A stretch of 54,799 bases of DNA from a virus (taxonomy: Duplodnaviria > Caudoviricetes), in the IMG/VR virus record IMGVR_UViG_3300038566_000115, positions 1-54,799 of that record. One strand, 5' to 3'. Positions 818-43,604 of the stretch are shown piece after piece; positions within the stretch are counted from its first letter, which is position 1, and each line of letters opens with the position of its first letter. Under the pieces are notes generated by a model. The model saw only the letters and a list, made by a program, of their open reading frames with translations, was not told the DNA's origin and made no database searches. Made by a program: the position numbers and the translations under genes.

Positions 818-1069
818 TCTCCGCTAGTTTCGTGAACTAACCACCCCATACACCGCGTACGTGTACAGAGACTCATTCTAGTCGTGTACGTACGCGTGTG
901 GTTATCCTTGTGTACGTACGTGTACACACTACCAATTCGCTGTAGGCCGCGTATATCAAGGGCTGTAGCCATATTAAATAATTCTCTGTCCAACTTGTGC
1001 CACTAAGCGTCCCGAATTTTCGAGCAAAAAGTGCTGTAAGTTATTGTATTTATTATATATTATTTATAT

Positions 1070-1078
1070 TGGTATAAT
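1070..1078 (+). promoter_or_regulatory. Extended -10 sigma70-type promoter element
   Basis: TGGTATAAT is a perfect TGnTATAAT with AT-rich upstream DNA, oriented toward the early genes. Confidence 0.55.
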
Positions 1079-1239
1079 TACCATACTTGGACAGAGAAAA
1101 ACAACGGAAACATTTTTTCACTTTCCGCCATACGTACGTGACACACCAACCACACAATATACACCCCGTATAAAAAATTGGGGGGTCTTATCTCTGAAAA
1201 ACTATGGCAATTAGGCCACCCAACAACAATAGCTAGGTA

Positions 1240-1252
1240 AATCAAACACTTA
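1240..1252 (+). promoter_or_regulatory. IHF-binding-site consensus match
   Basis: AATCAAACACTTA matches WATCAANNNNTTR. An imperfect inverted counterpart lies at about 1037-1051. Confidence 0.4.
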
Positions 1253-1422
1253 CCACACTCTATTCGGGACAGAGATTGCCCATACTGGCCACTAATTTCT
1301 GTCCACCTAGTTAAATCTATGCTGTAACCCAGTGCGTACGCTCACAGAGAGCATTTACCCACTGCCCACACGCGTACGTTCCATAACGTACGCACACCGT
1401 CAATAAATCTCACAACATAGGA

Positions 1423-1713
1423 GTGCCACTCATGTACGTACGCAACATAATGGACAAGCCAGTCTTTGAATATACTCAAGCCTGCGCTTATGTCCGCGAG
1501 CTCTATCTTGATGGATACCTATCAGCCGTTAATCTTGCTAACGCCATGCGTCAGTTGACAGCTATCAAAACATCAGTGCATCATATTGCACGTAAAGAAT
1601 CAATGTATTGGCAGGAGGTCCACTTGATAGTGAACCAACAAATCGAGAAACAAAAGACATTTCCCGAACTTGCTGCGGGTGACGTTGTTACATTATACCC
1701 GCCGGAGGATTAA
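1423..1713 (+). CDS. Hypothetical protein
   Basis: ORF with AGGAG just upstream (true start may be ATG 1432), in the early operon orientation. Confidence 0.65.
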   Translation: MPLMYVRNIMDKPVFEYTQACAYVRELYLDGYLSAVNLANAMRQLTAIKTSVHHIARKESMYWQEVHLIVNQQIEKQKTFPELAAGDVVTLYPPED

Positions 1714-1784
1714 TTATGATTACTGAAAAACAGCGATGCAAAGGACTACATCGACCTATTGATAACTAGACTGGAGGAAAAGCA

Positions 1785-1970
1785 ATGAATGACGCTAACT
1801 TAGAAGAACATATCGTGATGCACGAACAGATGCGTCTAATCCACCTACGCGACCAAATAAAAGAACAGGAGCAGACGATTAAACAACTACGAAGTGATAA
1901 ACGTAAACTAGTACGTCACATCACTGACCTCGTATGTAACCCAACCAAGGGGGGGAAAGGCAATGAATAA
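1785..1970 (+). CDS. Small coiled-coil hypothetical protein
   Basis: GGAGG RBS; heptad-like LRDQIKEQEQTIKQLRSDKRKL. Confidence 0.65.
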   Translation: MNDANLEEHIVMHEQMRLIHLRDQIKEQEQTIKQLRSDKRKLVRHITDLVCNPTKGGKGNE

Positions 1971-2101
1971 CTTTGAGTTAAACATGGCGAGCCCAACACA
2001 TAAGACCTCTTACCACACTACGCCATGCAGACACGTACGCACCTGCATGGTAAACTACACCGCGTGCACTAACCACACTAAACAATAAGGAGACACTAAC
2101 C

Positions 2102-3313
2102 ATGTCGAACCAAGCTACTGCTATGCCCCAAGTCAGTCTATTAGAAGCTGTAGAACTGACCGTTATCAACTGGTACACCCAACTTACTACGGGTGAGCGT
2201 ATGCCTATAGCCTATGTATCTGCCCCGGGTATAGGGAAATCCAGCGTTATCTACAACGAGTTACCTAAGCAACTGGCTAAGTTTCTCAACGATGATGTAG
2301 ACCGCAGCAACAACGCCAATGATGTTCTTATCAGGGAGGGAAAACAACCCATTGAATTTGGGCAGTGGACACCAAAACACTTCTACCTAAATCCTTTGAT
2401 GTGCCCCACCCAAGAAGGTGTCATCGCACAGGGTTTACCCGTGCCTATACGTACACAGGCAGAGGGTGAGGAGACCAGAGCGCACACCGTACTCGCACCG
2501 TCCCGTATCAGCCGGCCCGTCACTGATGCACCGTTCGTGTTGACCTTCCTTGATGAGTTCGATAAGGCTCAGCCTGACTTTAAGATGGCGATGAGTGAAT
2601 TTATTAACTCAGGGTTTATTGGCGATACCCAACTACCCCTATCTAACTACGCTGCACTTGCGATGAACCGCAGCCAAGATAAATCAGGCACTACCAACAT
2701 GCCGATGCACATACAGAACCGGATTGATGAGGTCCATGTCAAGGTTAACCGCGAGGACTGGATAGCGTGGGCACTGGCGAATACTAATATACCTGCTACT
2801 GCCATTGGGTTACTACAGTTCAAGCCTGACATCATGGTCGATGCTGTACCTAAGTCAGCGGAGCCCTACTGCACCTATCGTTCATACACTAAAGCGATGC
2901 AAGGGCTTGCCGTATCCGACGCGATCAACCCGAACCAACCCCACCACCTACGTAGAGCACGGCTAGTCGCAGCGATTGGACAGGCAGCAACCACAGAGTT
3001 CTTCGCTTATGAAAAGTTCGAGGCACAATGTACGCCTTACGAAGACATCATGGCCGACCCTGAGAACGCACCAGTACCGACAGAACTTGGTGTTCAGTGG
3101 GCGCAGAACATGTGCTTGTGGAATAACGTGACCGATAAGGACAGCCCGAAGGTATTTAAGTATATGCTACGGATGCCGAAACAATTTTGGGCTACACTAC
3201 TTGAGCATAAACTAATGAGTTGTCCATCACTCTTCGCGGATAGTGACTACATACAGTGGGTTAGTAAGGATGAGAACCTAACCTTCCTGTCACGCGTTGC
3301 TGCATACCGATGA
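2102..3313 (+). CDS. MoxR-type AAA+ ATPase
   Basis: Walker A SAPGIGKSS, Walker B FLDEFDK, sensor AMNR and Arg finger IQNR. Linked to a vWA gene. Confidence 0.85.
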   Translation: MSNQATAMPQVSLLEAVELTVINWYTQLTTGERMPIAYVSAPGIGKSSVIYNELPKQLAKFLNDDVDRSNNANDVLIREGKQPIEFGQWTPKHFYLNPLMCPTQEGVIAQGLPVPIRTQAEGEETRAHTVLAPSRISRPVTDAPFVLTFLDEFDKAQPDFKMAMSEFINSGFIGDTQLPLSNYAALAMNRSQDKSGTTNMPMHIQNRIDEVHVKVNREDWIAWALANTNIPATAIGLLQFKPDIMVDAVPKSAEPYCTYRSYTKAMQGLAVSDAINPNQPHHLRRARLVAAIGQAATTEFFAYEKFEAQCTPYEDIMADPENAPVPTELGVQWAQNMCLWNNVTDKDSPKVFKYMLRMPKQFWATLLEHKLMSCPSLFADSDYIQWVSKDENLTFLSRVAAYR

Positions 3314-3513
3314 AGTATGAGTATGCGATTGATGGCGATAATATTTACCGACGCCACCTAGTGTATGGCATTGACCACGATTTCCAAAGGTACTTTTTTA
3401 GTACAAATAAGTGGGGGTGGATACCCAATGTACTTATGGACTTACACGACTGGAACAAAACTTACGTAGATGTAATGAAACTTATTACCAAACAACAGGA
3501 GAGATTAAAATGA
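3310..3513 (+). CDS. Small paralog family member A (TYxDAxK family)
   Basis: ATGA overlap with ATPase; MKYEY...IYRR...W...KTYVDVMKLI. Confidence 0.75.
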   Translation: MKYEYAIDGDNIYRRHLVYGIDHDFQRYFFSTNKWGWIPNVLMDLHDWNKTYVDVMKLITKQQERLK

Positions 3514-3722
3514 AACGACCCTATGCTTATTGTAAACTCGATGGTGTTCTATATAGGTACGTACCCCCACCACTCGACATTGTAGATACATGGACAACAC
3601 ACGTCCAAGCTGCACCGTTTACACAGGGTGCATGGGGTGAACTTGTCCCACTTGAGTATGAAGCAGCTATCAAACATGCCATTCCTTCTACGGATGCAGC
3701 GATGATTGTTGCGGGTATGTAA
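3510..3722 (+). CDS. Small paralog family member B (divergent)
   Basis: AGGAG RBS and ATGA overlap; YAY...LYR...W...LEYEAAIKH. Confidence 0.6.
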   Translation: MKRPYAYCKLDGVLYRYVPPPLDIVDTWTTHVQAAPFTQGAWGELVPLEYEAAIKHAIPSTDAAMIVAGM

Positions 3723-3749
3723 GTATGGGTATGTAAGTATGGGTATGTA
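3713..3749 (+). repeat. 14-bp tandem repeat GGGTATGTAAGTAT x2.6
   Basis: Units at 3713-3726, 3727-3740 and partial 3741-3749, spanning the stop of B and the start of C. Confidence 0.95.
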
Positions 3750-3951
3750 TAGATACAAGGTATACGGAGGTTCGCTTTACCGTAAACGTATCATCAAAGA
3801 GAACCCACACTGGGAACACTCAGACAACATAGAGTTATACCTACGCCTTACCGGCGAGTGGGTTCCCGCTGTTCTGCACACCACGAATATAATGTGGGAC
3901 ACCACGTACGTACAAGCCTTGAAGTTTATTAACCAACACAGGAGACACTAA
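3745..3951 (+). CDS. Small paralog family member C
   Basis: MYRYKVYGGSLYRK...GEW...TTYVQALKFI. Start uncertain (3706/3739/3745). Confidence 0.7.
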   Translation: MYRYKVYGGSLYRKRIIKENPHWEHSDNIELYLRLTGEWVPAVLHTTNIMWDTTYVQALKFINQHRRH

Positions 3952-3953
3952 CC

Positions 3954-4886
3954 ATGTCAGAGATAAAACTTAAAGACCACATCGCCCAGTCAATGGCGAA
4001 CCAATTCATCTTGACGACTGTAACGAATAAGGAGTTCCAGTACATCAAGCCATCTAAAGCACTTGGCGCGGAGTTAGCACAACAACACGGCGCTACCGAA
4101 GAGGCTGCACTAGTGAGAGTTAATTCTTTTGCGGGGATTGACCAATTGTTTAAGGCGGTTAGTACAGCTAATGGTGACATCAAGTCACACCACCGTGCAC
4201 ATACGTTAGCGTTTGATGCGACAGGCGGGCGAGGACAGACACGCATGCTACACTGCGCCAACCTCGCTAAGTTTTTTGCAGAGCACGGACGGTTACTCCA
4301 GCATAGAGACGAAGCACTCAAGAACTTACGTGATGAGTACCCCGTCTTAGTAGAGCGGGCCAAAGCTACACTCGGTACACTACGTGACGAAGTAGAATAC
4401 CCTGACATTGACGAAGTAATAAGCAAGTACCAAATCACCATGACCAAGAGTCCGATGTCAGTACCGGCTACGCTACGCGCTATCCCTATGCTGAATAGTA
4501 GAGTAACTGACACCGCTGAGATTACATGGGCCGAAGGACTAGAGAAGTCATTCAATAAAGCGCAGGAAGCCGCAGCCCAATCCGCAGCGCAGGACTTAGC
4601 TAGTAAGCTCAAGTTATTAAGCCAACAGATATCGAACACGTTTAAGGAGAAGACGGCGACAGGCAAGACCCCTTCCATCCGAAAAGATTTGTTTGATAAG
4701 TGTAAGGACCATGCTGATTTACTCTACAACTATGATTTGCTAGCAGCAGATACGTCTGAGCTAATCCGTAGCTTACGTTCACTGTCTACTATGGATGCAA
4801 AGACGGTGAAGAACTCGCACTCAACGAAGGAGAAAGCGAAGACCCATGCCGCTGATATTGCTAAGCAAATCGATGAGTTGTTCTAA
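3954..4886 (+). CDS. DUF3150-like protein between AAA ATPase and vWA gene
   Basis: 310-aa helical ORF with strong RBS. Motifs AKATLGTL..EYPD...VISKY and its position resemble phage DUF3150-like proteins (family call tentative). Confidence 0.55.
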   Translation: MSEIKLKDHIAQSMANQFILTTVTNKEFQYIKPSKALGAELAQQHGATEEAALVRVNSFAGIDQLFKAVSTANGDIKSHHRAHTLAFDATGGRGQTRMLHCANLAKFFAEHGRLLQHRDEALKNLRDEYPVLVERAKATLGTLRDEVEYPDIDEVISKYQITMTKSPMSVPATLRAIPMLNSRVTDTAEITWAEGLEKSFNKAQEAAAQSAAQDLASKLKLLSQQISNTFKEKTATGKTPSIRKDLFDKCKDHADLLYNYDLLAADTSELIRSLRSLSTMDAKTVKNSHSTKEKAKTHAADIAKQIDELF

Positions 4887-5109
4887 GTATTACTACCAAA
4901 CCCCATGGGGCGCTGTTCTACGGAGTGACGTGAGTGTATACACTGCAATATCCAGGGAATATTCCCGCGCTTCTTCACCAATTAATTGTGAGAGGTGGGT
5001 AGATGCGCGTTGGCAGGACAGCACTATACACTCGCATTATTTATGGAACTCCCGAGAGATAACCTACATCGACGCACTTAAACTAATACGGGATGAGAAG
5101 AATGAATAA
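4873..5109 (+). CDS. Small paralog family member D
   Basis: KYYYQ...VLR...ERWVDARW...ITYIDALKLIR. Confidence 0.75.
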   Translation: MSCSKYYYQTPWGAVLRSDVSVYTAISREYSRASSPINCERWVDARWQDSTIHSHYLWNSREITYIDALKLIRDEKNE

Positions 5110-5307
5110 CGAGTATGGGTATTACTACCATGCCGACAGCGATATTCTAATGAAGACTAATGATGAACGTCGGTACGGGTTTGTACAACTCGATGGACTT
5201 TTAAATTGTTATACGCGGACAGGTAACGAATGGCACCCATGCACTGTAACGCTCCACTATTTTTTACAATACCGCTGCATAACCTACATCGACGCACTTA
5301 AACTAAT
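5059..5307 (+). repeat. Perfect 29-bp direct repeat ATAACCTACATCGACGCACTTAAACTAAT
   Basis: Copies at 5059-5087 and 5279-5307. A degenerate third copy lies at 6898-6926. Confidence 0.95.
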
Positions 5308-5362
5308 GAGAGGAGACACTAACCATGTCATTCAAACCGAAGAAGATAGTTCCCGCACCTGA
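5102..5362 (+). CDS. Small paralog family member E
   Basis: YGYYY...ILMK...NEW...ITYIDALKLMR. Confidence 0.75.
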   Translation: MNNEYGYYYHADSDILMKTNDERRYGFVQLDGLLNCYTRTGNEWHPCTVTLHYFLQYRCITYIDALKLMRGDTNHVIQTEEDSSRT

Positions 5363-6554
5363 CACGTGGGATGAAGTACTTGCCATTATCATGGCTGAAC
5401 CTAAGCTAGCGTTCTTTAGCAGCTTACTATTCCAACAACTAAAAGTATTCTTTGTTGAGGACCCCGAAGTCGACACCGCTGCAACAGATGGTACACGTAT
5501 CTTTGTGTCACCTGAATTCTGGGGCACATTAACCAACCCTAACCGTGTGTTCTTAATTGCCCATGAGATTATGCACTATGTATTACACCACAACATGTGG
5601 TGGAAGCGGGCGTTCGAGGGGTACACACTTGGTAAGGACCCCATCGACCAAGAGGAAATGAACCGCGCACAAGACTACATCATTAATGATATGTTAATCC
5701 GAGATAAGATAGGAGTAATGCCATCGGTAGGGTTACACGACACGAACATCGCCACACATGCTAGTGACTTAATGCAGACATACCTTGATTTACATGACCG
5801 TAATAAACAGAAGGGAGGTGGAGGCAATCAAGATAGCGGTGGTAATGGCGGTAAGGGTATGGACTCTCATCTACCTCCACCCCAACCAAGCAATGAGCTG
5901 GACCAGTCACAACACGAGGTGCAAGAGGCAGTGCAAGCCGCGAAGAATGCAGCGGAACAGATGGGTACCTTACCTGACAGCCTACGCCGTACACTAGGAG
6001 AGATACTAAGCCCTAAACGATATTGGGGTGACGTACTCCGCGATGAGTTCAGCGCTATTGCAGCGGGTGCTGACCGTAAGACGTGGCGCAAACCTAACAA
6101 GACCATGTTATCCCTGTTCGATATTTACATGCCGAGCACAACCGGATTCGCGTTCAACCGTATAGCAATTGTGTTTGATACAAGCGGTTCGATATGTGAT
6201 GAAGTGCTCGGTAAGTTTGTTGGCGAGTGTAAAGGTATGTTCAATGATTTACCTAGCGAGAATGGATACGAGCTATTGTACTGTAACACACGTACATACA
6301 AGCATGTGCACGCTGACAACACCGACGATATACCGGAAGCACCTGACTTCTTACAGGGTGGTGGTACTGATATGGGCGATGCGGTTAGGTATGCTAAGGA
6401 TAAGTGGGATGACCTCGATGCTATCTTAATACTAACCGATGGGTATACACCAGAGCCAAGCGAGGAAGACATACCCTGTCAGTTGGTGTGGGCTACGATA
6501 GCATCGACTAATCTGTCAACGGGCACCGTTGTTGAGATAAACGAACCGGCGTAG
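5325..6554 (+). CDS. DUF2201-type metallopeptidase + vWA domain protein
   Basis: TAATDG, HEIMH zinc motif, NRAQDYIIN, Gly-rich linker, MIDAS DTSGS, GGGTD and LTDGY. Confidence 0.9.
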   Translation: MSFKPKKIVPAPDTWDEVLAIIMAEPKLAFFSSLLFQQLKVFFVEDPEVDTAATDGTRIFVSPEFWGTLTNPNRVFLIAHEIMHYVLHHNMWWKRAFEGYTLGKDPIDQEEMNRAQDYIINDMLIRDKIGVMPSVGLHDTNIATHASDLMQTYLDLHDRNKQKGGGGNQDSGGNGGKGMDSHLPPPQPSNELDQSQHEVQEAVQAAKNAAEQMGTLPDSLRRTLGEILSPKRYWGDVLRDEFSAIAAGADRKTWRKPNKTMLSLFDIYMPSTTGFAFNRIAIVFDTSGSICDEVLGKFVGECKGMFNDLPSENGYELLYCNTRTYKHVHADNTDDIPEAPDFLQGGGTDMGDAVRYAKDKWDDLDAILILTDGYTPEPSEEDIPCQLVWATIASTNLSTGTVVEINEPA

Positions 6555-6562
6555 GAGGTGAC

Positions 6563-6713
6563 ATGAAATATGAATACTACAAATACACGGGGCCAGTTGA
6601 CCCTCGTCCAAGTATCACTAGCCGGTATATCCGTTATGCCCCCACCCCGCCCATTGGCGAAAGTTACCTTTGTCGAGGTGATGAAGTATATAGCAGGAGT
6701 TACTAATGAATGA
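6563..6713 (+). pseudogene. Frameshifted paralog family member F
   Basis: GGAGG RBS. Starts MKYEYYK (compare member A, MKYEY), but the family C-terminus KVTFVEVMKYI lies in another frame (6660-6713). Confidence 0.55.
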
Positions 6714-6933
6714 GTATCTTTATTTTAAACGAAGCGGTACCCACCGCAAGATTGCAATCTTGTATAGGATTCCATCAGATGATTTTTCGCGCGAAGTACA
6801 CAACGTACCCATCGAGAAGTGGGTTTCGTATGACCGACGATGACATATGGTTAACTGCGTTCACGAGAAGCAGCATACCATAAGGCACTGGGGTAGGATT
6901 ACCTACGTTGATGCAATTAAACTAATGAGATAA
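6706..6933 (+). pseudogene. Paralog family member G with in-frame TGA
   Basis: MNEYLYFK...ILYR...EKWVSYDRR*HMV...ITYVDAIKLMR*, with TGA at 6841-6843. Confidence 0.75.
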
Positions 6934-6946
6934 GGAGACAAAGTAA

Positions 6947-7927
6947 ATGCCAGTACAAAGATACGCTATCGAAACTATATTGAATACGTATAGGGATAAG
7001 ATGATAATATTCTTAACGAAACAAAACAGAGCGACGGTCCCCATACCTTATGACGATACGTTCAATATACTCTACAATAATATGAGCCAAGACGCTACTC
7101 GGTTAGACACGTATAACGCTGAGGTTGAAGCAATAAATGCAGCAGCGATACACCTCCGGCATGTTGACCCTCACCTCTGTGGACTAGTAGGATTATTTTC
7201 AGACAAACAATATTACTCTAATCCCAAGGATGAGAACTTTAATAACAACACTGCAACTATTGATATAGTATGTGAGTTCCCTGCCCTATCCAGATACAAA
7301 CTATTAAGCAAAAAAAGTGACGGACTAAGGGCACTCGATAACGGAGCGGTTCAAGTAAAAACACAGGCTTCGGTGTGTATCACCCAACCCCACTTGCATA
7401 TAGGAACTAGAGGCAATAAGTTATTTACCCGCGAGTTATGTTCTCAAGTAGTTTCAGATGCTAGCCCGATTGAGTTACCTGAACCCCAGAGAGTACATGT
7501 AAAGTTACAGGCCACGCTCATTGTGGCATACCACATACTCTACGACATACTCTTCCGCTGCAATACAATCGTTCAGGTGTTTGACGCACTACCTCCTACC
7601 ACCCACCCCCTATTCTTAGAGAATAAAAGTTTAGTGAGGCTACTTGAGAAGAATAAAAACAAGCGCCCGAAACAAAAGTACATTCTCACCGACGAGGGAA
7701 AGTCAGTACTTAACCAAGCACTGCTGCCACTCATCATGTATCGGGAACTAAACGATATTGGTAGCGCCACACAGGAGAGAAGACCTGTAACTCCTGCCGC
7801 GTTTGACTACACCCTTGCGTTACCAACGGCATACTTATCTGTCACAGAACCCACTATACCACTATCGTTCCATCAACTTATTCCACAAGAGGACGGACCA
7901 CATTATGAATTGCTTGACTTGATATGA
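6947..7927 (+). CDS. Hypothetical protein (326 aa)
   Basis: Long ORF with AAGGAG RBS. No family recognised with confidence. Confidence 0.8.
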   Translation: MPVQRYAIETILNTYRDKMIIFLTKQNRATVPIPYDDTFNILYNNMSQDATRLDTYNAEVEAINAAAIHLRHVDPHLCGLVGLFSDKQYYSNPKDENFNNNTATIDIVCEFPALSRYKLLSKKSDGLRALDNGAVQVKTQASVCITQPHLHIGTRGNKLFTRELCSQVVSDASPIELPEPQRVHVKLQATLIVAYHILYDILFRCNTIVQVFDALPPTTHPLFLENKSLVRLLEKNKNKRPKQKYILTDEGKSVLNQALLPLIMYRELNDIGSATQERRPVTPAAFDYTLALPTAYLSVTEPTIPLSFHQLIPQEDGPHYELLDLI

Positions 7928-7942
7928 TGGGTTGAGTATAAA
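7914..7942 (+). promoter_or_regulatory. Sigma70-type promoter upstream of the replication module
   Basis: TTGACT (7914-7919), 17-bp spacer, TATAAA (7937-7942), followed by an intergenic gap. Confidence 0.6.
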
Positions 7943-8073
7943 GAGAAACGGTAAGAGGTCCTTATGCCTCTGGTTAGCGAGTAACGTAGGTCCCCCGCTC
8001 GTACCATAAAGGGGGTCCGCACTATCGTATAACTATATACGTACATTAACCTTTATCATAAGGAGCACTAACC

Positions 8074-8376
8074 ATGCCTGACGATAACAAACCAATAACC
8101 ATCGAGGCGTTCATTACTATGTTCGACCTCGACTTACTTGACGTTGAACACTACCTCCCGTTCAACGATGCCAGAAACACCAATGGTGTAATGACCGACC
8201 TCTTCATCATTGCTATGAAGGCGGATACGGAATCGTCCATCAAAAGTAGATTGGCCTGTATGGATGGCAACTTCTTTGCAGAATCCCCACTCAAGATGAA
8301 GCTACGCAAGAAGTCTGACCTTGCCCATTCTGGAGACAGACAACAGACTCACTTCACTACGGGGGGTTCGATATGA
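8074..8376 (+). CDS. Hypothetical protein
   Basis: AGGAGCACTAACCATG start element. Shares FxESPLK motif with the next gene. Confidence 0.75.
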   Translation: MPDDNKPITIEAFITMFDLDLLDVEHYLPFNDARNTNGVMTDLFIIAMKADTESSIKSRLACMDGNFFAESPLKMKLRKKSDLAHSGDRQQTHFTTGGSI

Positions 8377-8816
8377 TAATCGAAGACATCATACCCCACC
8401 TTAACCAAGCACATAAAGATGAGCTACTTGCGAGAGGGTATCCAAAACACACGGGTAAATTAGTAACACATGAACACACTAAAGAATTTGTGTTGGCACA
8501 GGTCAATGATAACCCCTACAAGATATCCCGAGTACGCTATATAGATGAAGAGGTAGCACTTTGCGCGGTGGACAAGGTACCCCAAACACTTGCTTACATC
8601 CCTTCGGAGTACCAGTCACCTCGTGTATGCGCACAAGCAGTAAGTAAAGGTGATTCAGACATAATAAGCTATGTGAAAGAGTGGACCCTAGATAAGTTCC
8701 TTGCTGTGTATTCAGTAGCGCCGACCCAAATAATGTTCAACTTACCACTCGGTGAGTTCGATGAATCCCCCCTCAAGATATTCATAAAGAAGGAGAAGAA
8801 AATAAATGGGCGATAA
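8373..8816 (+). CDS. DUF4116-like helical-repeat protein
   Basis: Repeats of the type EVALCAV...LAYIP / RVCAQAV...ISYV; ATGA overlap. Confidence 0.6.
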   Translation: MIIEDIIPHLNQAHKDELLARGYPKHTGKLVTHEHTKEFVLAQVNDNPYKISRVRYIDEEVALCAVDKVPQTLAYIPSEYQSPRVCAQAVSKGDSDIISYVKEWTLDKFLAVYSVAPTQIMFNLPLGEFDESPLKIFIKKEKKINGR

Positions 8817-8952
8817 CTTCTGGTGTAATAAATGCCGACGCTTCAAACCTATTGAAGACAGACGTACCCGCAAGACGCACAACGGCACGCACAACAGTTC
8901 GATATGTGCTACGTGTTTAACGAGAGTAAAGAAACCAAGGAGTAAACAGTGA
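8806..8952 (+). CDS. Small zinc-finger protein (48 aa, not in ORF track)
   Basis: MGDNFWCNKCRRFK...ICATCLTRVKKPRSKQ has two CxxC motifs; AAGGAG upstream and GTGA overlap with the next gene. Confidence 0.7.
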   Translation: MGDNFWCNKCRRFKPIEDRRTRKTHNGTHNSSICATCLTRVKKPRSKQ

Positions 8953-9227
8953 ACGTAAATGATTATATCAGAGTAGTAGATAATATATCCGATAGGATAA
9001 AGGCGGTACGTGATAGCTTCTGGATGCTGATGTTAATCACAGCGATAATAGCCTTAGCGATATCGTACCTATCCCCAAGAGACTCGACCGACTACCCCGA
9101 TAGTCGAAGCAATATGGAACTTCACATTGACGCGAAGACGGGATGCCACTACTTAAGTACTAAGTACGGCGGGATAATAAAACGCACTGACAAAAAGGGT
9201 AAGCACATTTGTTGGGGGAAGGAATGA
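8949..9227 (+). CDS. Membrane-anchored DUF6440-like protein
   Basis: One TM helix, then HIDAKTGCHYLS..GGI..R.D..GKHIC. Confidence 0.6.
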   Translation: MNVNDYIRVVDNISDRIKAVRDSFWMLMLITAIIALAISYLSPRDSTDYPDSRSNMELHIDAKTGCHYLSTKYGGIIKRTDKKGKHICWGKE

Positions 9228-11092
9228 AAATAGTTACGCTTGACTTCGAGAGCTACTACGATTCTGACTGTGGGTTCGCTAAACAGATAACCCAAGAGTA
9301 TGTGCTCGACCCTAAGTTCGAGTCACTGATGGTGACAGTAAAGGTAAGCGACTCCCCAACTTACGTTATACAGGGGACACACGACGAGATAGGCGAGCAG
9401 TTACGCGGTGCGGTTGACTGGAGTGAGTATGCCGTATGCGCACACAACACACGATTTGATGCTGCGATTATGGTGTGGCTGTACGACATACACCCTAAGT
9501 TTTTCCTCGATACTATGTCTATGATGAACGCCAAGGTCAAGCCTATCACCGGCGGAAGTTCGCTTGCTGTGGGTGCGGAGTATTTCGACTTACATAGTAA
9601 AGGTACGGCGGTTACTAATGCGAAGGGAAAGCGGCGGCGTAACTTTACAATCGAGGAATGGAAGGAGTACATAGAGTATGGCATACATGATACCGACCTA
9701 TGCTATGCGATACTTATGAAACTCTTACCTAAGTTCACCCGCCAAGAACTACTTATCATGGACCACAATCTGCGGATGTTCTTATATCCACAACTAGAAT
9801 TAGATGGTGGCTTACTACGACAACACCGTGATGATTTAGCCGCAGCTAAACGCAAGGTACTAACGAACCCTGTACTAAACGCTGCGTTATTAATAAAAGA
9901 TGAGGAGGAAATAATCGCCGCACTCAGGAGCGATGAGCGATTTTCTAAAGCACTGAAAGTTCTTGGCTGTCCAGTTAAGGAGAAGTGGTCAGACAAGCAG
10001 CAGAAGATGGTACCTGCCCTAGCGAAGACAGACCAGTTCATGCTGCGCCTAGTTAAGCTAAGTGAGGACCACCCCGTAGGCGTGATTGCGAGAGCGAGAG
10101 TGATGGTTAAGTCGACCATTGAAGAGTCACGTACAGGCAGGTTCTTAAGTATAGCGTCTCTCAGCCCGATGCTACCTGTCCCGTTGCGTTACTCTGCGGC
10201 ACACACCCACCGATTTGGCGGCGACGACAAACTTAACCTACAAAACCTACAGAGGGGTAGCCTATTACGTAAGGCAATCCGCGCACCAAAAGGAAAGAAA
10301 ATTGTAGTATGTGATTTATCACAGGTGGAGGCACGGGTTAACGCATGGCATTGCGGGGAGCATGCTATGCTCGATGTATGGAGAAGAGGCGGCGATATCT
10401 ATTGCGCGTTCGCATCTGCAGCGTTTGGATTTGAAGTAACCAAAGCCGATAAAGACCACCGATTCTTAGGGAAGACAGCGATACTAGGACTAGGATTTGG
10501 GATGGGCATTGCTAGGTTCACCGATACACTACGGGATGCGGGTGTGAATGACTACGAGGCTGTAGCACACACGTTATTTAATTCATACCGAGGTACGTAC
10601 CGCCGGATTGTAGGTGGGTGGAAGCGACTCGAATTGCGATGGCGTGAAGCGCTGAACGTAGGGGGGCAGATACCCTACGATGTCACGGAGTCATCCTATA
10701 TAGAGGGATACAAAGTGTTTATGCCTCATGGCCTTGAACTGATGTACCCCGACATACACCATTCACTAGACCAGCGAGGCTTAGTGTTTACAAAGGCTAA
10801 AGGCAAAGCTAAGTATTATACCTCTATATGGGGTGGCACCCTCGTTGAGAATCTAGTCCAAGCACTGGCCCGCGCAATACTTGCTGACCAGTGGGTACGA
10901 ATCTACAAACGTACAGGGCTGCGCCCCGCGATGCAGGTACACGACGAGTTAATCTACGTGGTGGATGAAGATAAAGCCGAGTCGATACTTGATATTGTAA
11001 TAGAGGAAATGTGTATCCCCCCTGCGTGGTGCGCTGACCTACCCCTCGATGCAGAAGGCGACATCGCCGACAACTATGGAGAAGCAAAGTAA
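9224..11092 (+). CDS. polA: Family A DNA polymerase with 3'-5' exonuclease
   Basis: ExoI DFES, ExoII HNTRFD, ExoIII YGIHD; motif A DLSQVEAR, motif B RFLGKTAILGLGFG, motif C VHDE. Confidence 0.95.
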   Translation: MKIVTLDFESYYDSDCGFAKQITQEYVLDPKFESLMVTVKVSDSPTYVIQGTHDEIGEQLRGAVDWSEYAVCAHNTRFDAAIMVWLYDIHPKFFLDTMSMMNAKVKPITGGSSLAVGAEYFDLHSKGTAVTNAKGKRRRNFTIEEWKEYIEYGIHDTDLCYAILMKLLPKFTRQELLIMDHNLRMFLYPQLELDGGLLRQHRDDLAAAKRKVLTNPVLNAALLIKDEEEIIAALRSDERFSKALKVLGCPVKEKWSDKQQKMVPALAKTDQFMLRLVKLSEDHPVGVIARARVMVKSTIEESRTGRFLSIASLSPMLPVPLRYSAAHTHRFGGDDKLNLQNLQRGSLLRKAIRAPKGKKIVVCDLSQVEARVNAWHCGEHAMLDVWRRGGDIYCAFASAAFGFEVTKADKDHRFLGKTAILGLGFGMGIARFTDTLRDAGVNDYEAVAHTLFNSYRGTYRRIVGGWKRLELRWREALNVGGQIPYDVTESSYIEGYKVFMPHGLELMYPDIHHSLDQRGLVFTKAKGKAKYYTSIWGGTLVENLVQALARAILADQWVRIYKRTGLRPAMQVHDELIYVVDEDKAESILDIVIEEMCIPPAWCADLPLDAEGDIADNYGEAK

Positions 11093-13331: not shown

Positions 13332-14892
13332 GGTTGTTATCTCTAAAGCCCACAAGATGGTCTTAGTCCCCAACAAATCAATGTCTAGCCTGATACCCCA
13401 CACCAAGCAAGTAACAATGCGTGGGGTTAACTACTCCTGTATACCCCATGGTATCGAGGAAACTAAAGTACTACGTAACATAGGGTACGATGTACCAAGC
13501 CCAATCCGTCACCACTATGATTGGGCAGGTAGCACAGAGGTATATGATACCCAACGCGACACCGCTGAACTAATGGTGGATAACAACGCTGCATATATCC
13601 TTAACTCCATGGGTACTGGTAAGACCAGAGCATCATTATTCGCAACCGATTACTTACTCAAAGAGGGTAGGATTGATAAGGTAATAATCTTAGCGCCGCT
13701 ATCTACACTGACGCATACGTGGGAGCGGGAGATATTCATGTGCTTCCCCCACCGTAGTGCCATATCACTACACCATCCACAAAAGGCACAGCGCCTAAAG
13801 CGTATGATGGAGGATAGGGATTACTACATTATTAACCATGATGGCGTGAAGGTAATACTGCGCGAACTACTCGTCAACATGAAGTTATGGGGGCGAGTCG
13901 CTATCATCATTGATGAACTTGCTGTATTGCGGAATCAGAAGACTGCGCGGTGGAAGGCGGTCAATCAAATGGTAAGGCAGAGTTCTTACGCATGGGGTAT
14001 GACAGGTGGTCCAGTACCAAAAGAACCCACTGATGCTTATGGACAAGTGAAGTTACTTACGCCCAACCGTGTACCTAAATACTTTAAGAAGTTCAAAGAA
14101 CTTACCATGCTGCAGATAACGCAGTTCAAGTGGATACCGAAACGCGAGGCGCTCGATGTGGTGTACGATGCTATGCGACCTAGTGTTAGGTTTACTCGTG
14201 ATGATTGTTTCGACCTGCCACCAGTCACGTACTCAACACGAGAGATTAAGTTATCGAAGACTCAGGAATTAGCAGGCAAGAAAATGTGGGATTACTTTGT
14301 GCATGAGGATTCCCAAGGGCTTATCACTGCCGCTAACTCAGCGGTAAGGATAGGAAAATTAATCCAGATATATGGAGGGTTTGTATACTCGGACGAACAA
14401 AAGATAATTAGCCTGTCCCCTGATGATAGGTTACGCGAGGTAGAAGAAATCATCAATGAAGCAGAGGGTAAGGTCATTGTATTCTGTGGGTATAGACACA
14501 CTGTCGATTCTGTCACGGATTTTTTATCTACCAATTTCAAGGTGGATAAGGTCTACGGTTCGACCAGTAAAACAAAACGTGACGAACTCTTTACAGACTT
14601 CCAGTTTGGTAGTAAGTTAGATGTTCTTGTCGCTCATCCACAGACGATGGCGCACGGACTTACGTTGACCGCTGCGAATACTATTATCTGGTACCAACCG
14701 ATAATGGACCTTGAAATCTTTGACCAAGCAAACGCCCGTATTACAAGGGCTGGACAGACAAGACCCCAACACATCGTGAAACTTGTTGCGAGTAAGATTG
14801 AAACTGCAGTATACAAAAGACTACAGCAGCGGTCGGATACGCAGAACTTACTACTCGATATGTTACATGGGGAAAACTTAACAGAATTTTAG
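13318..14892 (+). CDS. SNF2-family (SF2) helicase
   Basis: MGTGKT, IIDE, MTGGP, HGLTLT and QANARITRAGQ motifs. Confidence 0.92.
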   Translation: MPMDKVVISKAHKMVLVPNKSMSSLIPHTKQVTMRGVNYSCIPHGIEETKVLRNIGYDVPSPIRHHYDWAGSTEVYDTQRDTAELMVDNNAAYILNSMGTGKTRASLFATDYLLKEGRIDKVIILAPLSTLTHTWEREIFMCFPHRSAISLHHPQKAQRLKRMMEDRDYYIINHDGVKVILRELLVNMKLWGRVAIIIDELAVLRNQKTARWKAVNQMVRQSSYAWGMTGGPVPKEPTDAYGQVKLLTPNRVPKYFKKFKELTMLQITQFKWIPKREALDVVYDAMRPSVRFTRDDCFDLPPVTYSTREIKLSKTQELAGKKMWDYFVHEDSQGLITAANSAVRIGKLIQIYGGFVYSDEQKIISLSPDDRLREVEEIINEAEGKVIVFCGYRHTVDSVTDFLSTNFKVDKVYGSTSKTKRDELFTDFQFGSKLDVLVAHPQTMAHGLTLTAANTIIWYQPIMDLEIFDQANARITRAGQTRPQHIVKLVASKIETAVYKRLQQRSDTQNLLLDMLHGENLTEF

Positions 14893-14904
14893 GAGGTGCT
14901 AACC

Positions 14905-15291
14905 ATGCCCACAATAGAAGAAGTAATCGCTGAGTACCAAGAACTCAAGACCAAGAAGAAATTGACAGAGGACAAACTTAAGGAAGCACTTGGCCCTACA
15001 GTACAACGCATGGATAAAATAAAAGCTGTACTAAAGGAATTCCTACAGAAGCAAGGAGCGGATAACACTTCTACTCCTGCCGGCACCGCGTACCTAACCA
15101 CAAAGACCAGCACTACAGTCAAAGACAAGGCAGCATTCTTTGACTACTGCAACGAGGGCGATAACTGGGAGTTCGCTGATATCCGCGCAAGTAAAACCAA
15201 TATCATGGCACAACTAGAAAAGACAGGCGAAGTACCTGCCGGTGTTTCTATCAATCAATTCATCGACGTTAACATTAGAAAAGGTAAATAA
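14905..15291 (+). CDS. Conserved-type phage protein preceding SSB-like gene
   Basis: AGGAGG RBS; N-terminal coiled coil, TPAGTAY and VPAGV motifs. Confidence 0.75.
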   Translation: MPTIEEVIAEYQELKTKKKLTEDKLKEALGPTVQRMDKIKAVLKEFLQKQGADNTSTPAGTAYLTTKTSTTVKDKAAFFDYCNEGDNWEFADIRASKTNIMAQLEKTGEVPAGVSINQFIDVNIRKGK

Positions 15292-19231: not shown

Positions 19232-22200
19232 CTATAGACCTTCTATCCCTTCCTCACCTCCACGCAAACCAGATGGATTATATTTGGATTGCCGTTCCCT
19301 TTCTCTCGCCTCCTTAACAGCGCGAGTAACATCCTTAATCGTAATACGTTTACCTAGCCTTGCTTTTGCAATGGTGCGGTTATATTCCGATATCTCTTCC
19401 TTCGCATCCTTAAGGCTCCTACCACGTAGCGATGCCTGTACATAACTGGCTAAGGCTGAACGGCGGGCAGATTTCCCCACGTCCTGCTGTGCCCAGTCTG
19501 ACATACGGTCAGCCCAATACACAGCTTCTTCGTGCGGGGTAAATCCAAACGCTTTACTCGCGGCTGTCTTGGCGGATGGTGGTAGCAGTTGCCTACCTGA
19601 CTTGGATAGTAACCCTTCGGTAGCTCGCTCATAGGCTTGGGTTAAGTCACGTATAAACTTAACTGGTATCGCATACTTCAAGGTCGCTTCTACTTTACCT
19701 TGCCCACTCTCTATTGCCCTAATGTAAGATTTAACATTCTGATACCCTGAACCTACTATTGGTCCTATCAAGCTAGAGCCGAAAGTATCCGCCCACCACT
19801 CGAACCCGTGCTCTTGTGAGGTGTTGGTTAATAGCCTGTGCATACCCGCACGAGAAGAGAAGTCTATACCCAACATAGCATTATACATACCATATGTTAT
19901 GAACTCTGCTACCTGCGGTCCAGCTACTTGCTCAACCATGTCGTACACCAAGCGCTCTGGTCTATCAAGTATCTCGTCTTCTGCTTCATCGAGTCCTAGT
20001 CCGACCAACCCAAGCGTTGAGTTGAGTATAGTCGCCGCCAAACGCACCGGTTCTATGAAGAGTGCGCCGCTAGTTCCCGTGAACAATTGAGATACTAACG
20101 CCACCCCTGCCAATGTACGCATTGCCTTAGCTTTATCCTCTTGGCTGCGCCCCTCGCGCATGAACCCACGGTATATCTGCGTCGATATCATAGAGTACAG
20201 ACCTAATGGATACATCTTCATCGCGGATATAACCTTGAGTGCCGCATTACCTACCATCCAATCTGGACGATTTAATATGTCGTAGTTTATTTGTGTTTGG
20301 TCAATGGCGTTCTGTGCTTCCTTCACTGCGACTTCATGTGACTGCCCTGAATCCCGCGCCATTTCATACGCTGCTATAGCAGTAACCGACCGGTTAACCA
20401 TTTCCGATATCTGGTTGACTACCCTACCCATAGAGAGTACGCGGTGTGCTCCTTCACCTGCGCCCTCTAGTATCTTGGCACCCACTGCAGTATCCTTTTT
20501 GTTTAAGCTAGACACAGGCGAGGATGCCATTTCATGCAACTCGTTAGTAAAGGTATGTTCTATACTTCCAGTCTCTACAAGTTTATCAAGCATAGAATTG
20601 ATATCATCTGCTAGTGGACCCTCACCTACGTTCGCTTTTATCTGCCTGAACATATCATCATAGACTACTTCGTCACCGGATAGCGCATTAGCACCGCCGC
20701 GTTCAGCCAGTACCTTACGTATAGCTGGACCCATAACCCTGCCGTGTGCCCGTGAAACATAGCTAAACGCGCTATTTATCCCAGACTGTGAAGTACCGCC
20801 ATGGTACTTACCAGATAAGTAAGGTACTGTTAACATCCAAGGTTGATGTAAGTTAATGATGGGATGCGATGGTGACATCAATGTATTCGTGAACCCAAGT
20901 CCTGACAATACTTGTAACAGTGCGCCACTCGAATCATTCCTATCGATACGCCCCGCCAACTCAGCAACAATCGAATCATTGCGGTCTTTCTCTTCCGGTG
21001 TTTTCCCCTCATTAACCTTTTCAATATCCGCCCTAAGTTTCGCTTGCTCCGGCGCTGTCTCCAACGCAGAGATATACCGACCAGTACTCTCGACGTACTT
21101 AGCCATACCCTGTACTAAATCAACATTGGTTCCTGCTATGCCCTGTCGCTTAACATGTCGCGTTAGCATAGATGAGTCTGGTAACATTTTGTAGAACTCT
21201 TGTATCGCCGGCGAGCCCTCCGTATTTTCCCCTGATAGTTTCTTAATTACGTTTAATACTTCCTCAGTAGACAGCATGCCCACTGAATCCTTCTGGATAT
21301 TACGTGGGATTAATTTGTTCGTTACCTTCCACCCATCAGGGAACCCTTCACGGTTAAGTTCGGCAATCTCACGTAGGTTCTCGTTAGACGATGGGTTAAC
21401 TCTAAACCCTTTCTCACTCTCGGTTACTAGGTAAGAATCACCCTCCAATTCAATCTTAACCGTTGGTACTCCACCCTGTACACCGCGTGTACCTAGCAAC
21501 TTACCTTTTAGTTTCTCGGCGGCTTCTTTAGTACTAACTACATGCTCTCGCGCAGTGTGTAAAGAGAACCCGTGAGTACCGTCACGATAAGAAGGTACAT
21601 AGATACCGTTCTTTTGTTTGTTGTACTGCTTGTTCGTAGATAGGAGCATCTTAGCTGTACCTTCAAACACAGCATTAGGTTGCCCACCTTTACCATAGAA
21701 CCTGTCATGTATGTGGGGAGGCATGGTAGACAGTATTTCATCCAAGTCCTCGTCACTCTTAACGTCCTTTAACCTCCCTATTAGCGAGGTTGATGGGTTC
21801 GTCATACCATGCCTGTACATTAGTGCTTTGACTAGTGCGGTGTGCATCTTGTTGTTCGCATCTTTATAGTAAGACGTCAGTGTCTTGAACACTTCCTTAA
21901 GCGGAGGAGGCAGTGAATTGTATTCACTACGGACTCGGCTATACAGTGGGCGTTTAGCTTTTTTCTGTTTATCGCTCAGCCACGTATGTACTTGCAACGG
22001 TATGCGAGGGTCTATCTGTTGGTAAGAAGCATCTAGCATAAGGCTAGTCAGTGACTGGCGTTGAACATCAGTGATGCCCTTACTTGCTAATAAGTCCCGA
22101 ACATACCTAACCTTATTGAAATTATCATGGATATACTTAGTGCCTAGCCGTACTCTCCTACGTGCATTGTCGAGCATCCCTCGCAATAATTCCTTTCCAT

Positions 22201-25200
22201 TCACCCCAACCATACTGTCAGAGAACTTTTCTACTAGTCCATCAGAGGTTTCTAATACGCGGCGGTAAATTTTACCTGTTGTATTAGCGATGTCTTGTAG
22301 TTTACTTCGCCCTGCAGCACCTGCCCCACCATCAGCGGGGTTATCTTGTATGTCATTAAAGTACAGCTCACCAAGACCGCCACCCCCATCGCCGTTCTGT
22401 AGTGCAATGAGTTCCAGTTCTGCGTCTTCTATGTATTCTTTCTCCTCCACTGCCTCTCTCTGCTCAGTGGCAGTAGACACCTTATCGCTATTGCGTACGA
22501 GTTCGCGCATCCTATCCGCAGCTTTCGTTGCTTGCGCCTCTGTCATACCCAACGATTTAAGTAGTGCGTCGCGGGGGGGAGTCACCAGTTTATTATCACT
22601 GCCAAGTTCTGTTCCTAGTGTACGTAGCTGGGTAATAGTATCTATGGTTGGTCGGCCATGCGTAGCGATATCACTTGATACTGCGGCAGATGCGGCGGAA
22701 ACTTCTAGCATTTGGTCGAAGAATGTTTTTGGTTTTATACTCGACGGCAGTATCCGCTTGAGTATTGATAGCACAGCGTCAACCATTTGGTCGTACAATG
22801 ATTTGTGCGCTGCGCGGTGGTCTTTAAGCAAAGAACTTACAGTCTCATTGGCTGGCATAGCTTTCATAGCATTCTGTACTTCTTGATTAACAAGAAATTC
22901 AGTTGCCAACTCAAGTGGGTTCTTAGTAGCATAGGATACTTCTGGGCTGACCGCACCGCTCTTATTTACTTCCGTCGTAAAGTCCCTATAAATTTCATCC
23001 ATCGCTGCCTTTAACGTAGGGTCGTTGGTTAGTGCCGGTACCGTAACTGCATGGCCTAGTTCGTGTATAAAGCTATACACGAGCATGGGGTCCGACGATA
23101 CATCATCGTTAAGTATTACAGTGCCGTCACCCACTCCAGAAATAGCGGCATCTTCCTTTAACTCGTTATATATCTTTATGATGTCAGAGTCTAAGGCGTC
23201 TGAATACCCGTACTTCTCTCTCAATGTAGATAGAGATTTACGTAGGGGTCCAGCGTGAGCTAAGTATTTACCTAGATGACTGCCGACTACTCTATCGGCA
23301 ACGTACTCACTTATCCTTACATCTGAACTCGATAAGAATACCTGCATCGCTTCCAAGGTTTCCCGCGCCTTAGACTTAGGCGGCAACGCCCCAACAAACT
23401 CTGCGATAAACTCACTAGCATTACTAGACTTGTCCGCTCGTAAGCCCTGTACGCGAGAGTTTTGATTCGCAATGTCCACACCGACCTCTAGGTTATTCTT
23501 TATCATGGTCGCTTCTTGCGGCGTGATTACAGAATATCCACTATCGGTGTTAGTACCACCACTCAACACATCAGACACCACGGAAGTTTTTTCTTTCTCG
23601 GCCTTCGCTAAAAATTCATCTGCGGCATCAGGTTTTGTTTCATCAGTCTCTTGTGTAGACTTTTTCTTAGCCTTAGCTTTTATTGATTCGCCCTTAGCCG
23701 CTGGCTTTTTCTTCTTAGGCTTAGGTGGTACTGGACTCTCACTTAACGCATCGATACTGTCAGCCAACTGCTCTATAATCTTCGGTGCGGTATTGCGGTT
23801 ACGGGATGCAGATTGTACACCTGTTAATGCGTTTGATACATGCGTCGCTGCCTTCGCCACCAACCCATCGATATCTGGTGTACGTACAGACTCTGGGGCG
23901 GCAAGCACTGCTGTCTGTAATATATCCCCTATGAATTCAGCGGGGAAGGATTTAGTTTTCGCATCTTTATTGGCTCTATCTACTATACTGGCGGCATCAC
24001 GTAGGTACTTAGTGAACTCATCTTTAGTTTTACCTGAGTCCTTATCAGCATGAGCGAGCACATCAGCTATAGCAGGGTGGCCCACGCCGGATTCGGATAA
24101 CTCATGGAGCTTCTTAAGTGCTGCCTTAGCTGCCATCTTACGTCGGGCTGGAGTCTTACCCTCAATACCTGAATCAATGAGTCGATTCACTTCCGCTAAC
24201 TTACGCGATAGCTTTTTATTTAGCGGTCCCTTTCTGCCCGTAGACTTCTCTACGTTTGATATTAAGTTCTGCAGCTTGGCAGTCTCTCCTTTTAATGGAG
24301 TCCACAACGCTGCTTTTACTTTATCTGTGTGAACCTTAAATGCTTTGGCTCGTTGCTGTACCTTGTTACCTTCTGCGTTCTTATCGTACATATGCTTGAA
24401 GTCGAGAGTAGAATCTAGCTCTGCTAAATCATCCTTATCTAACTTGTTCTGGCCCAAGAACACTGCATCATACTTACGCTTGGTACGTTCTACAAACGAG
24501 TTAGGGTTATCAAGCGGTAGCGCTGTCTGCCGATTAACATCCCCGCCGCCTTCATCTGTAGGGGTTGGAGTGGCGGGTATCGCTTCTTTCTTCTGCTTGT
24601 TTGTTTTATTACTTCCCGTACCATCAAGATTAAATTCTCGTTGGGGAGTAGAATTATTTACCGGCGCTGCAGTATCTTTGACAGCGGGCTTCTTTTTCTG
24701 TTGGGTTGGTTTAGGTTCAGCTTTTTTAACTGACTCCTGTTTCACAGGTCCCTCTTCCTTAGCTACCTCCGTGACAGGCGCTTTAGTTTCCTCAGCTTTT
24801 TCAACTTTTTTAGTTTTACTCGCTGCGTTAACTGCAGCGCGGGAATCCTCAAGGAATCCAATGGGGTCTGTCTTAACATTGTTCTCTCCATCGACTTCTC
24901 CCACCCCAGCAAGGGATTCTTCTAGGCTAATCTGTTTGTCTAACATCGCATCGTGTAGCGCTGTTTCTTCTATTGATGCAGTATCATCTGCGACTTTCGG
25001 AGATAATTCTGCCAGCTTCTTATCGATTTCTAATATACGCCCTATGGTCTCCGAAACGCTATCCAATGTAGCAGCGACCTTCGGGGGTGCGGAGGGACTA
25101 GAAGGGGTAGGTGGACGTGAGTTTTCAATGCGTTGCTTATCTGCACCCTTCGCAATTTGCTTCTGGGTGTTGGGGGTTAGAACAGCGGCAAGGCTACCAC

Positions 25201-43595: not shown

Positions 43596-43604
43596 TATAC
43601 ACCC

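Follow-up and report, generated by a model that had tools for sequence, protein, structure and literature searches.

Why would a tailed phage line the junctions of three conserved large genes with small genes that barely align with one another? The question arises in IMG/VR virus record IMGVR_UViG_3300038566_000115 (Duplodnaviria; Caudoviricetes), taken whole; its full 54,799 nucleotides (nt; 54.8 kb, completeness rated 91%) are called the window here. The phage is uncultured and marine, as judged from three sequencing runs of one study that carry a marine metagenome label and contain DNA with full identity to the window. Between positions 3310 and 6933 seven small open reading frames (ORFs), s1 to s7, stand in groups of three, two and two after the genes for an ATPase of 403 amino acids (aa), a 310-aa middle protein and a 409-aa zincin-vWA protein. 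We find that s1, s3, s4 and s5 are clear paralogs, that s7 is a further member with an in-frame TGA and that s6 is a short frameshifted remnant. The ends of the family are constant, and its middles and copy number turn over between closely related phages.

An earlier reading of the letters (the original prediction) had described seven interleaved paralogs, two of them disrupted, and all seven ORFs are present where it had placed them:

3310..3513, plus strand: s1, 67 aa, intact; start codon and ATPase stop codon overlap (ATGA).
3510..3722, plus strand: s2, 70 aa, an intact ORF and borderline member, with an AGGAGA ribosome-binding site and a frame favoured by codon usage.
3713..3740, plus strand: repeat D16 at the s2/s3 junction, an exact 14-nt tandem duplication (GGGTATGTAAGTAT twice).
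3745..3951, plus strand: s3, 68 aa (70 aa from 3739), intact; its TAA stop lies inside copy 2 of the ribosome-binding cassette described below.
4873..5109, plus strand: s4, 78 aa (87 aa from 4846), intact; begins before the middle gene has ended.
5102..5362, plus strand: s5, 86 aa, intact; its last 38 nt lie within the vWA gene.
6563..6713, plus strand: s6, decayed, its middle missing; an N-terminal piece and the C-terminal motif lie in different frames.
6706..6933, plus strand: s7, whose 75-codon frame contains a single TGA (6841-6843) and keeps its C-terminal motif, ITYVDAIKLMR, intact.

The overrun of s5 into the vWA gene occurs because the stop codon that follows the motif in s7 is missing. 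The two disruptions are those of s6, which would amount to only about 50 codons even if read through, and s7; since the ATPase gene also ends in TGA, there is no sign of recoding in s7.

Paralogy was assessed by comparing Smith-Waterman scores with 500 shuffles, using four neighbouring small ORFs as control. No shuffle matched the pairs s4-s5 (z 17.4), s1-s3 (z 9.3), s4-s7 (z 8.4), s5-s7 (z 6.5) and s3-s5 (z 4.7), and one in 500 did so for each of s1-s4 (z 4.8) and s3-s4 (z 4.2). The C-terminal piece of s6 is linked to s5 (z 5.7) and s1 (z 4.7) with 0/500 shuffles each and to s4 (z 4.4) with 2/500, and none of the 38 control pairs lies over z 2.9. A family profile built from s1, s3, s4 and s5 and scored against 1000 shuffles gives 18.5 bits for s7 and 7.0 bits for the C-terminal piece of s6 (0/1000 each), 2.1 bits for the N-terminal piece of s6 (54/1000) and -0.2 bits for s2 (172/1000). 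Pairwise, s2 is tied to s5 (z 4.2, 0/500) and s3 (z 3.1, 3/500) and to no other copy, and by eye its start (YxY...G..YR) resembles those of s1 and s3, which makes it a probable but unproven seventh member. The predicted paralogy thus holds, by pairwise scores of z 4.2 to 17.4 and by profile, for s1, s3, s4, s5, s7 and the C-terminal piece of s6, and is borderline for s2. A 41-aa ORF upstream of the ATPase gene (1963-2088) was considered as an eighth, decayed copy and rejected, its best DNA-alignment z of 1.5 being no better than controls and the profile giving no match.

What the copies share is a Tyr-rich N-terminal hairpin, a central Trp and a C-terminal helix with the motif TY(I/V)(D/Q/E)(A/V)(L/M/I)K(L/F/Y)(I/M). 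The codons of the motif vary synonymously between copies: T is written ACT, ACG or ACC, V as GTA, GTT or GTC, D as GAT or GAC, K as AAA or AAG and L as CTT, CTA or TTG. That the motif is kept as amino acids while synonymous sites differ shows selection on the protein. With identities of 25-38%, four to five copies have still retained open frames of 67-86 codons, and a codon-usage model trained on the large genes of the phage prefers the annotated frame in s1-s5 and scores nearly all shifted frames unfavourably, one value for s2 being weakly positive. The pair s4-s5 is 35% identical over 74 aa and shares 29 consecutive identical nt across the motif, synonymous sites included; such a stretch despite about 35-38% protein identity points to recent duplication or gene conversion.

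A search of the 54.8 kb of the phage itself found no family copy outside 3310-6933, and recovered s7 (E 0.0016) though it was outside the query alignment. Among 5.8 billion proteins a word-indexed search returned three matches, all of them the window's own, and a full HMMER scan of 1.84 billion representatives returned four, namely three own proteins and one false positive, a 263-aa tandem-repeat protein. The products of s1-s5 belong to no Pfam or PHROG family, PADLOC gave no match for the nine proteins scanned, s1-s5 among them, and the best ESM Atlas score for s4 (0.79) is under the lead level of 0.9. For s4, AlphaFold2 with a four-sequence alignment predicts four strands (two beta-hairpins) and a C-terminal helix at a pLDDT of 54.2, which is too weak for a fold search.

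Turnover can be followed in a close relative, the contigs of run X4 from a different study, which is known from alignment joints and not from its letters. Its large genes are 80-99% identical to those of the window, with three aligned pieces at >=99%, three at 95-99%, three at 90-95% and six below 90%. In s1 a joint 3332>3449 swaps the 116-nt middle (3333-3448) for 125 other letters; the contig matches the window through the ATPase gene's end and 23 nt into s1, and rejoins it at the s1 C-terminal motif. In s3 a joint 3727>3886 skips 158 nt (3728-3885). A third joint, 4919>5272, with one letter between, deletes 352 nt, so that the larger part of s4 and s5 is gone and the s4 start adjoins the s5 motif. 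These differences show both variable middles and turnover in copy number. Copies are born (s4/s5) and dying (s6, s7 and the s4-s5 deletion in the relative), so that the constant ends, hypervariable middles and birth-and-death evolution proposed in the original prediction are all borne out. At window position 3457 the relative also has 20 inserted nt that duplicate the beginning of the s1 C-terminal motif, perhaps as a scar of recombination, perhaps as an effect of the alignment. Assemblies X1-X3, from the runs of the source study, list no difference from the window over 2000-8200, s6 and s7 included; they are not independent of the window and may be the source of its DNA.

How the small genes are expressed is suggested by a ribosome-binding cassette on the large genes:

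2088..2104, plus strand: cassette AGGAGACACTAACCATG, exact copy 1 of 3, before the ATPase gene.
3940..3956, plus strand: copy 2, before the middle gene.
5311..5327, plus strand: copy 3, before the vWA gene.

These are the three exact matches to the 17-nt cassette in 54.8 kb (0.07 expected), and every one lies directly at the ATG of one of the three large genes; copies 2 and 3 are part of a 20-nt repeat, D6, that is 100% identical between 3940-3959 and 5311-5330. Scanned across viral contigs, the cassette occurs at three loci, all without similarity to the window. Near-copies precede two more plus-strand genes, at 8058-8076 (a 100-aa gene at 8074) and, with three mismatches, at 14891-14907. In each group the last small ORF stops at or within the cassette of the next large gene, s1 and s4 start inside the end of the preceding gene, and most small copies have a Shine-Dalgarno sequence or an overlap with the preceding gene's end. 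A simple consensus scan of 3310-6933 found no plus-strand sigma-70-like promoter or terminator-like site. Over window positions 1000-9300 there are 13 terminator-like sites, all on the minus strand, against 6.8 +/- 2.2 expected on both strands; the A-rich coding strand probably accounts for this excess. Because the small genes share the strand of the large ones, have no internal plus-strand promoter or terminator-like sites and overlap their neighbours and the cassette with their starts and stops, their products are presumably made together with the operon. No RNA run was found among the sequencing runs that contain the window DNA.

The three large genes that carry the array are:

2102..3313, plus strand: AAA+ ATPase, 403 aa (PHROG 1297 'ATPase', E 1.4e-37; weakly MoxR/AAA_5-like).
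3954..4886, plus strand: middle gene, 310 aa, DUF3150-like, the conserved third gene of the module by its jackhmmer homologues.
5325..6554, plus strand: protein with zincin-like metallopeptidase and vWA domains, 409 aa (Pfam; PHROG 1314, E 2.2e-63).

The window ATPase matches no Pfam family at E <= 0.1, and a sequence search of solved structures with this protein alone found no relative. Its Walker A (P42, G43, K46) and Walker B (D151, E152) residues are invariant across 26 homologues, two of which weakly match AAA_5 (best E 9.2e-4), and the ATPase profile finds midasin as its best solved relative over a short stretch (E 3.7e-4). The protein is therefore an AAA+ ATPase, and MoxR-like only through weak similarity and its vWA partner. 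The MoxR label of the original prediction is thus backed by the Walker motifs and the adjacent vWA gene and not by any MoxR/AAA_3 or AAA_5 match above cut-off. Its DUF3150 label for the middle gene fares similarly: the window protein has no Pfam match at E <= 0.1, DUF3150 (PF11348) is matched by two of 20 jackhmmer-linked homologues (best E 4.8e-4), and the tie is therefore weak and transitive. A sequence search of solved structures with the middle protein gave nothing meaningful. An origin of the small genes as an offshoot of the DUF3150-like gene was considered and rejected, the hhalign probability being 0.07% for the window family and 0.12% for the family of a second phage, at locus L048, described below. 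The third protein matches both expected Pfam families above cut-off, DUF2201_N with 91.5 bits (cut-off 23.2) and DUF2201 with 40.2 bits (cut-off 26.4). Its HExxH (H80, E81, H84) and DxSxS metal-site residues (D285, S287, S289), which we take to be the catalytic motif and the MIDAS motif, respectively, are invariant in nine aligned relatives.

Downstream of the array follows one more large gene:

6947..7927, plus strand: next large gene, 326 aa, with a variant cassette, TAAGGAGACAAAGTAAATG, upstream.

Its product has no Pfam, PHROG or NCBIfam match and no homologue in 82 related loci, and in the relative of run X4 104 nt inside this ORFan gene are skipped too (window 7745-7850). For the four large proteins together NCBIfam gave one match only, at E 0.032 and far under cut-off. 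The replication genes (DNA polymerase, exonuclease, helicase, primase) lie on the plus strand in the first 19 kb, and the structural genes are on the minus strand. A 2503-aa ORF at 19232-26743 (minus strand) matches PHROGs of giant phage proteins with its last ~650 residues, one of them labelled DarB-like antirestriction (E 2.3e-20); its first 1800 residues are without match.

The module itself is widespread. The vWA protein has 1589 relatives at E <= 1e-10, with 179 confirmed loci in one viral collection. Our comparison set comprises 83 sources, i.e. the window and 82 related loci holding a vWA match. An ATPase homologue is found in 75 of the 82 loci (76 of 83 sources once the window is counted); it shares the strand of the vWA gene and mostly lies upstream of it. 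Middle-gene homologues, as detected by jackhmmer, occur in 50 of the 83 sources; where all three genes are present (48 sources), the middle gene lies between the other two in 43. Neither the phage records nor the papers found assign the ATPase/zincin-vWA pair a function in phage infection. N4-like phages carry the same two families (PHROG 1297 and PHROG 1314; DUF2201_N/DUF2201), and both Acinetobacter phage nACB1 and Vibrio phage D499 have the two genes side by side, with the helicase and DNA polymerase genes following just downstream. Unlike in the window, where the DUF3150-like gene and seven small ORFs are interleaved, the pair is 9 nt apart in D499 and separated by one 137-aa gene in nACB1. 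Annotated relatives of the ATPase, in N4-like and other phages, are at closest 21-26% identical; window positions 2000-7000 have no megablast match in phage records, and a search of the viral collection for close relatives with the 310-aa, vWA or ATPase protein found none; the small proteins, once aligned, offer no stretch of sufficient conservation for such a scan. One relative, P0006, encoded on a contig of 57.8 kb, shows 73% identity, and when metagenomes were scanned with the alignment of the vWA pair, a single match resulted, weak and short.

Junction lengths were counted in 37 non-redundant loci that have ATPase, middle and vWA genes in this order, the window included. The ATPase-middle junction is shorter than 100 nt in 23 of these and the middle-vWA junction in 12; at least one junction measures >=250 nt in 23 loci, and both do so in eight, including the window. 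Genes inserted at such junctions elsewhere are unrelated to the window family and encode Lar restriction-alleviation, zinc-ribbon and helix-turn-helix proteins. Lar genes (PF14354) lie in the ATPase-to-middle junction of two loci, at 714-1034 of L079 (42.6 bits) and 3623-3946 of L082 (41.8 bits; cut-off 28.6).

Small paralog families are present in 21 of the 83 sources and differ from phage to phage. The module-bearing loci L028, L014, L030 and L088 have private families of eight, five, four and four copies with conserved N- and/or C-terminal motifs and variable middles, each unlike the window family. A further array stands in an unrelated phage, at locus L048 of the complete 64.8 kb genome G001, where a family of 73-103 aa has 16 copies. 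Like the window family it combines a constant start (MRLADLxW), a variable middle and a constant C-terminal helix (LEAQCLLNxYL, extended LEAQCLLNxYLxGND) with overlapping or translationally coupled genes and the same ATPase/vWA module: over 1409-10954 of L048 the small genes overlap, the C-terminal codons of one holding the ribosome-binding site and start of the next. In G001 all 16 copies lie at 39.7-49.2 kb, around and inside the ATPase (43010-44101) and vWA (45913-47499) genes. Unlike in the window, most copies are beside and not between the module genes, and a homologue search found no DUF3150-like gene in the module. The two families are not detectably homologous (hhalign probability 0.08%). 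For the L048 family a fold of four strands and a C-terminal helix is predicted at a pLDDT of 85.6; this model has no PDB match at E <= 0.001, its best viral match is to uncharacterised phage proteins (E 0.023, TM 0.75), and its best structural-alignment Z (6.6, YkuJ) is within the range of common arrangements. The family has no PHROG and no Pfam family, a single weak match of one member being at chance level.

The association between arrays and module was then tested in 21 whole phage records with the module by genome-wide searches for paralog families of small ORFs. With the window excluded, six families have at least three sites. The median distance to the module is below 4 kb for four of them (1.4, 1.6, 2.3 and 2.9 kb) and 9.9 and 22.9 kb for the other two. 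Small-gene density would predict 1.76 near arrays (P 0.062), and genome length would predict 1.13 (P 0.013). Among two-member families there is no such enrichment, 6 being near and 17 far once pairs at both contig ends were set aside by eye as terminal repeats. By these counts the link between arrays and module is suggestive, not established; the related loci, moreover, were reached through the module and form a biased sample.

What, then, do the small proteins do? The explanation we favour, at about even confidence, is that they form a lineage-specific, fast-turnover family of host-interaction proteins that is co-expressed with the module and need not serve it. Local duplications at the operon's three junctions would have expanded a family of ~65-85 aa, its conserved ends forming a fold core or a common contact and its variable middle a target-binding surface. 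Its members would most likely bind host proteins, for takeover or counter-defence, as do other small phage proteins that evolve fast and are made ahead of the late genes; an anti-defence role is plausible for them as candidates. Their location would follow from junctions that tolerate insertions and from short identical cassettes that favour unequal recombination; the machine itself need not require them.

The closest described phenomenon is the modular shuffling of ORFans in T4-type phages. These have variable ('hyperplastic') regions in which small ORFans are inserted, deleted and replaced between close relatives by recombination at PeSLs, which are short conserved cassettes (Arbiol et al. 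2010, PMC2839356). Both cases share homologue-less small genes, short conserved flanks, insertions, deletions and replacements between close relatives, and conserved core neighbours. The T4-type flanks are promoter and terminator units, whereas those in the window are coding gene ends and a ribosome-binding cassette, and the window genes belong to one paralogous family and lie within a conserved three-gene operon, not in a separate variable region. The claim in the original prediction that no described system has this layout is fair for the family; the general pattern of small ORFans shuffled in variable phage regions was already described (PMC2839356). Our literature search, with supplementary files outside its scope, found no paper describing the layout of array and module. 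In T4, counter-defence is reported to have been gained through recombination (preprint 10.1101/2022.04.14.488369).

Several observations weigh against this explanation. No fold or family match gives a lead, and the s4 model is poor (pLDDT 54). The confinement of all copies to the operon fits a functional tie to the module better than coincidence, and so do the non-homologous 16-copy family that likewise surrounds the module in G001 and the four of six other arrays within 4 kb of it. Moreover, with two of seven copies broken and two more lost in the relative, some copies are dispensable and could be drifting.

It is possible, though doubtful, that the small proteins are instead an exchangeable third part of the AAA+/zincin-vWA machine, acting as its clients, adaptors or decoys. 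Docking would be through the constant C-terminal helix, whose conserved acidic residue might sit at the vWA metal site, and the variable middle would steer remodelling or cleavage to different host targets. Beyond the placement of all six or seven copies at operon junctions, with none elsewhere in the 54.8 kb, and of all 16 copies of the G001 family around or inside its module, this would account for the arrays near the module in four of six other genomes (P 0.013-0.062). The identical ribosome-binding cassette on the three large genes fits balanced co-production, and the window and L048 families are both predicted to have four strands and a C-terminal helix, the window model being of low confidence. 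Tandem duplication alone, however, would cluster copies wherever the first one had landed. With ATPase-middle junctions below 100 nt in 23 of 37 loci and middle-vWA junctions in 12, many modules are without internal small genes, and what other phages carry at these junctions are unrelated genes, Lar among them. The lack of enrichment among two-member families, the two arrays far from the module, the lack of detectable homology between the small families of different phages and the sampling of loci through the module argue in the same direction. A predicted complex of the vWA protein with s4 (score 0.00, mark 0.32) weighs neither way. The original prediction is thus supported in part: its description of the family and its evolution holds, and the putative adaptor or cargo role meets evidence on both sides.

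The closest described system for such a partnership is the MoxR-vWA ternary conflict systems of bacteria, for which peptide capture by the vWA protein and release of the partner, in an altered state, by the ATPase have been proposed (Kaur, Burroughs, Iyer, Aravind 2020, PMC7159879). That paper describes MoxR-vWA pairs with a variable third component, i.e. an AAA+ ATPase and a vWA partner linked to a component with a highly variable region, as in the window. There, the third components are large (VMAP, inactive STAND, FtsH, beta-propeller), the hosts are multicellular bacteria and effectors are fused to the vWA protein. Set against these descriptions, the window has a phage zincin-vWA protein (DUF2201), a DUF3150-like gene and variable genes of 65-85 aa, which are far shorter. 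In its general form the idea would be that phage AAA+/zincin-vWA operons are three-part machines whose third part is a set of small, fast-diversifying proteins invented independently in each phage (beta-hairpin/helix in the window, MRLADLxW...LEAQCLL in G001). We consider this generalization unlikely. If true, docking by constant ends and a variable surface would let the machine remodel or cleave changing host targets, e.g. defence proteins, and a widespread, unexplained phage module would gain a function.

We regard it as improbable that the copies are functionless, either as drifting duplicates or as short upstream frames kept for translational coupling onto the large genes via the cassette. 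The ends of the last small ORFs at or inside the next cassette, the starts of s1 and s4 within the preceding gene's end, the two broken copies, the two deleted in the relative and the many related modules without such ORFs are all what it would lead one to expect. It sits poorly with a motif kept at the amino-acid level over varying synonymous sites and with four to five copies that keep 67-86-codon frames at 25-38% identity. For coupling, moreover, one short ORF per junction would do, rather than two or three tandem genes with a conserved hairpin, Trp and helix.

Very improbable, finally, is a DNA-level element, be it PeSL-type cassettes as in T4, with promoter and terminator, that shuffle genes, or a diversity-generating retroelement that targets the middles: the exchange of middles between conserved flanks in the relative does resemble cassette exchange and identical 17-20 nt cassettes do flank the groups, but 3310-6933 has no plus-strand promoter or terminator-like site (all 13 terminator-like sites over 1000-9300 being on the minus strand), the flanks are coding sequence with synonymous variation, no DNA similarity among the middles could provide template and variable repeat, and no reverse transcriptase (RVT_1) match was found in the 91%-complete genome (as a control, the same search gave matches in three of 14 genomes), which makes a retroelement unlikely.

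The ATPase and zincin-vWA pair is common in tailed phages. In the window and in a second, unrelated phage the module is surrounded and interrupted by private small families with constant ends and replaced middles. If the small proteins are partners of the module, they would offer an experimental handle on its role; if they are not, the array is a clean natural case of ORFan birth, diversification and death within one operon, between near-identical phages. Either way, the family provides a ready candidate set for host-takeover or counter-defence screens.

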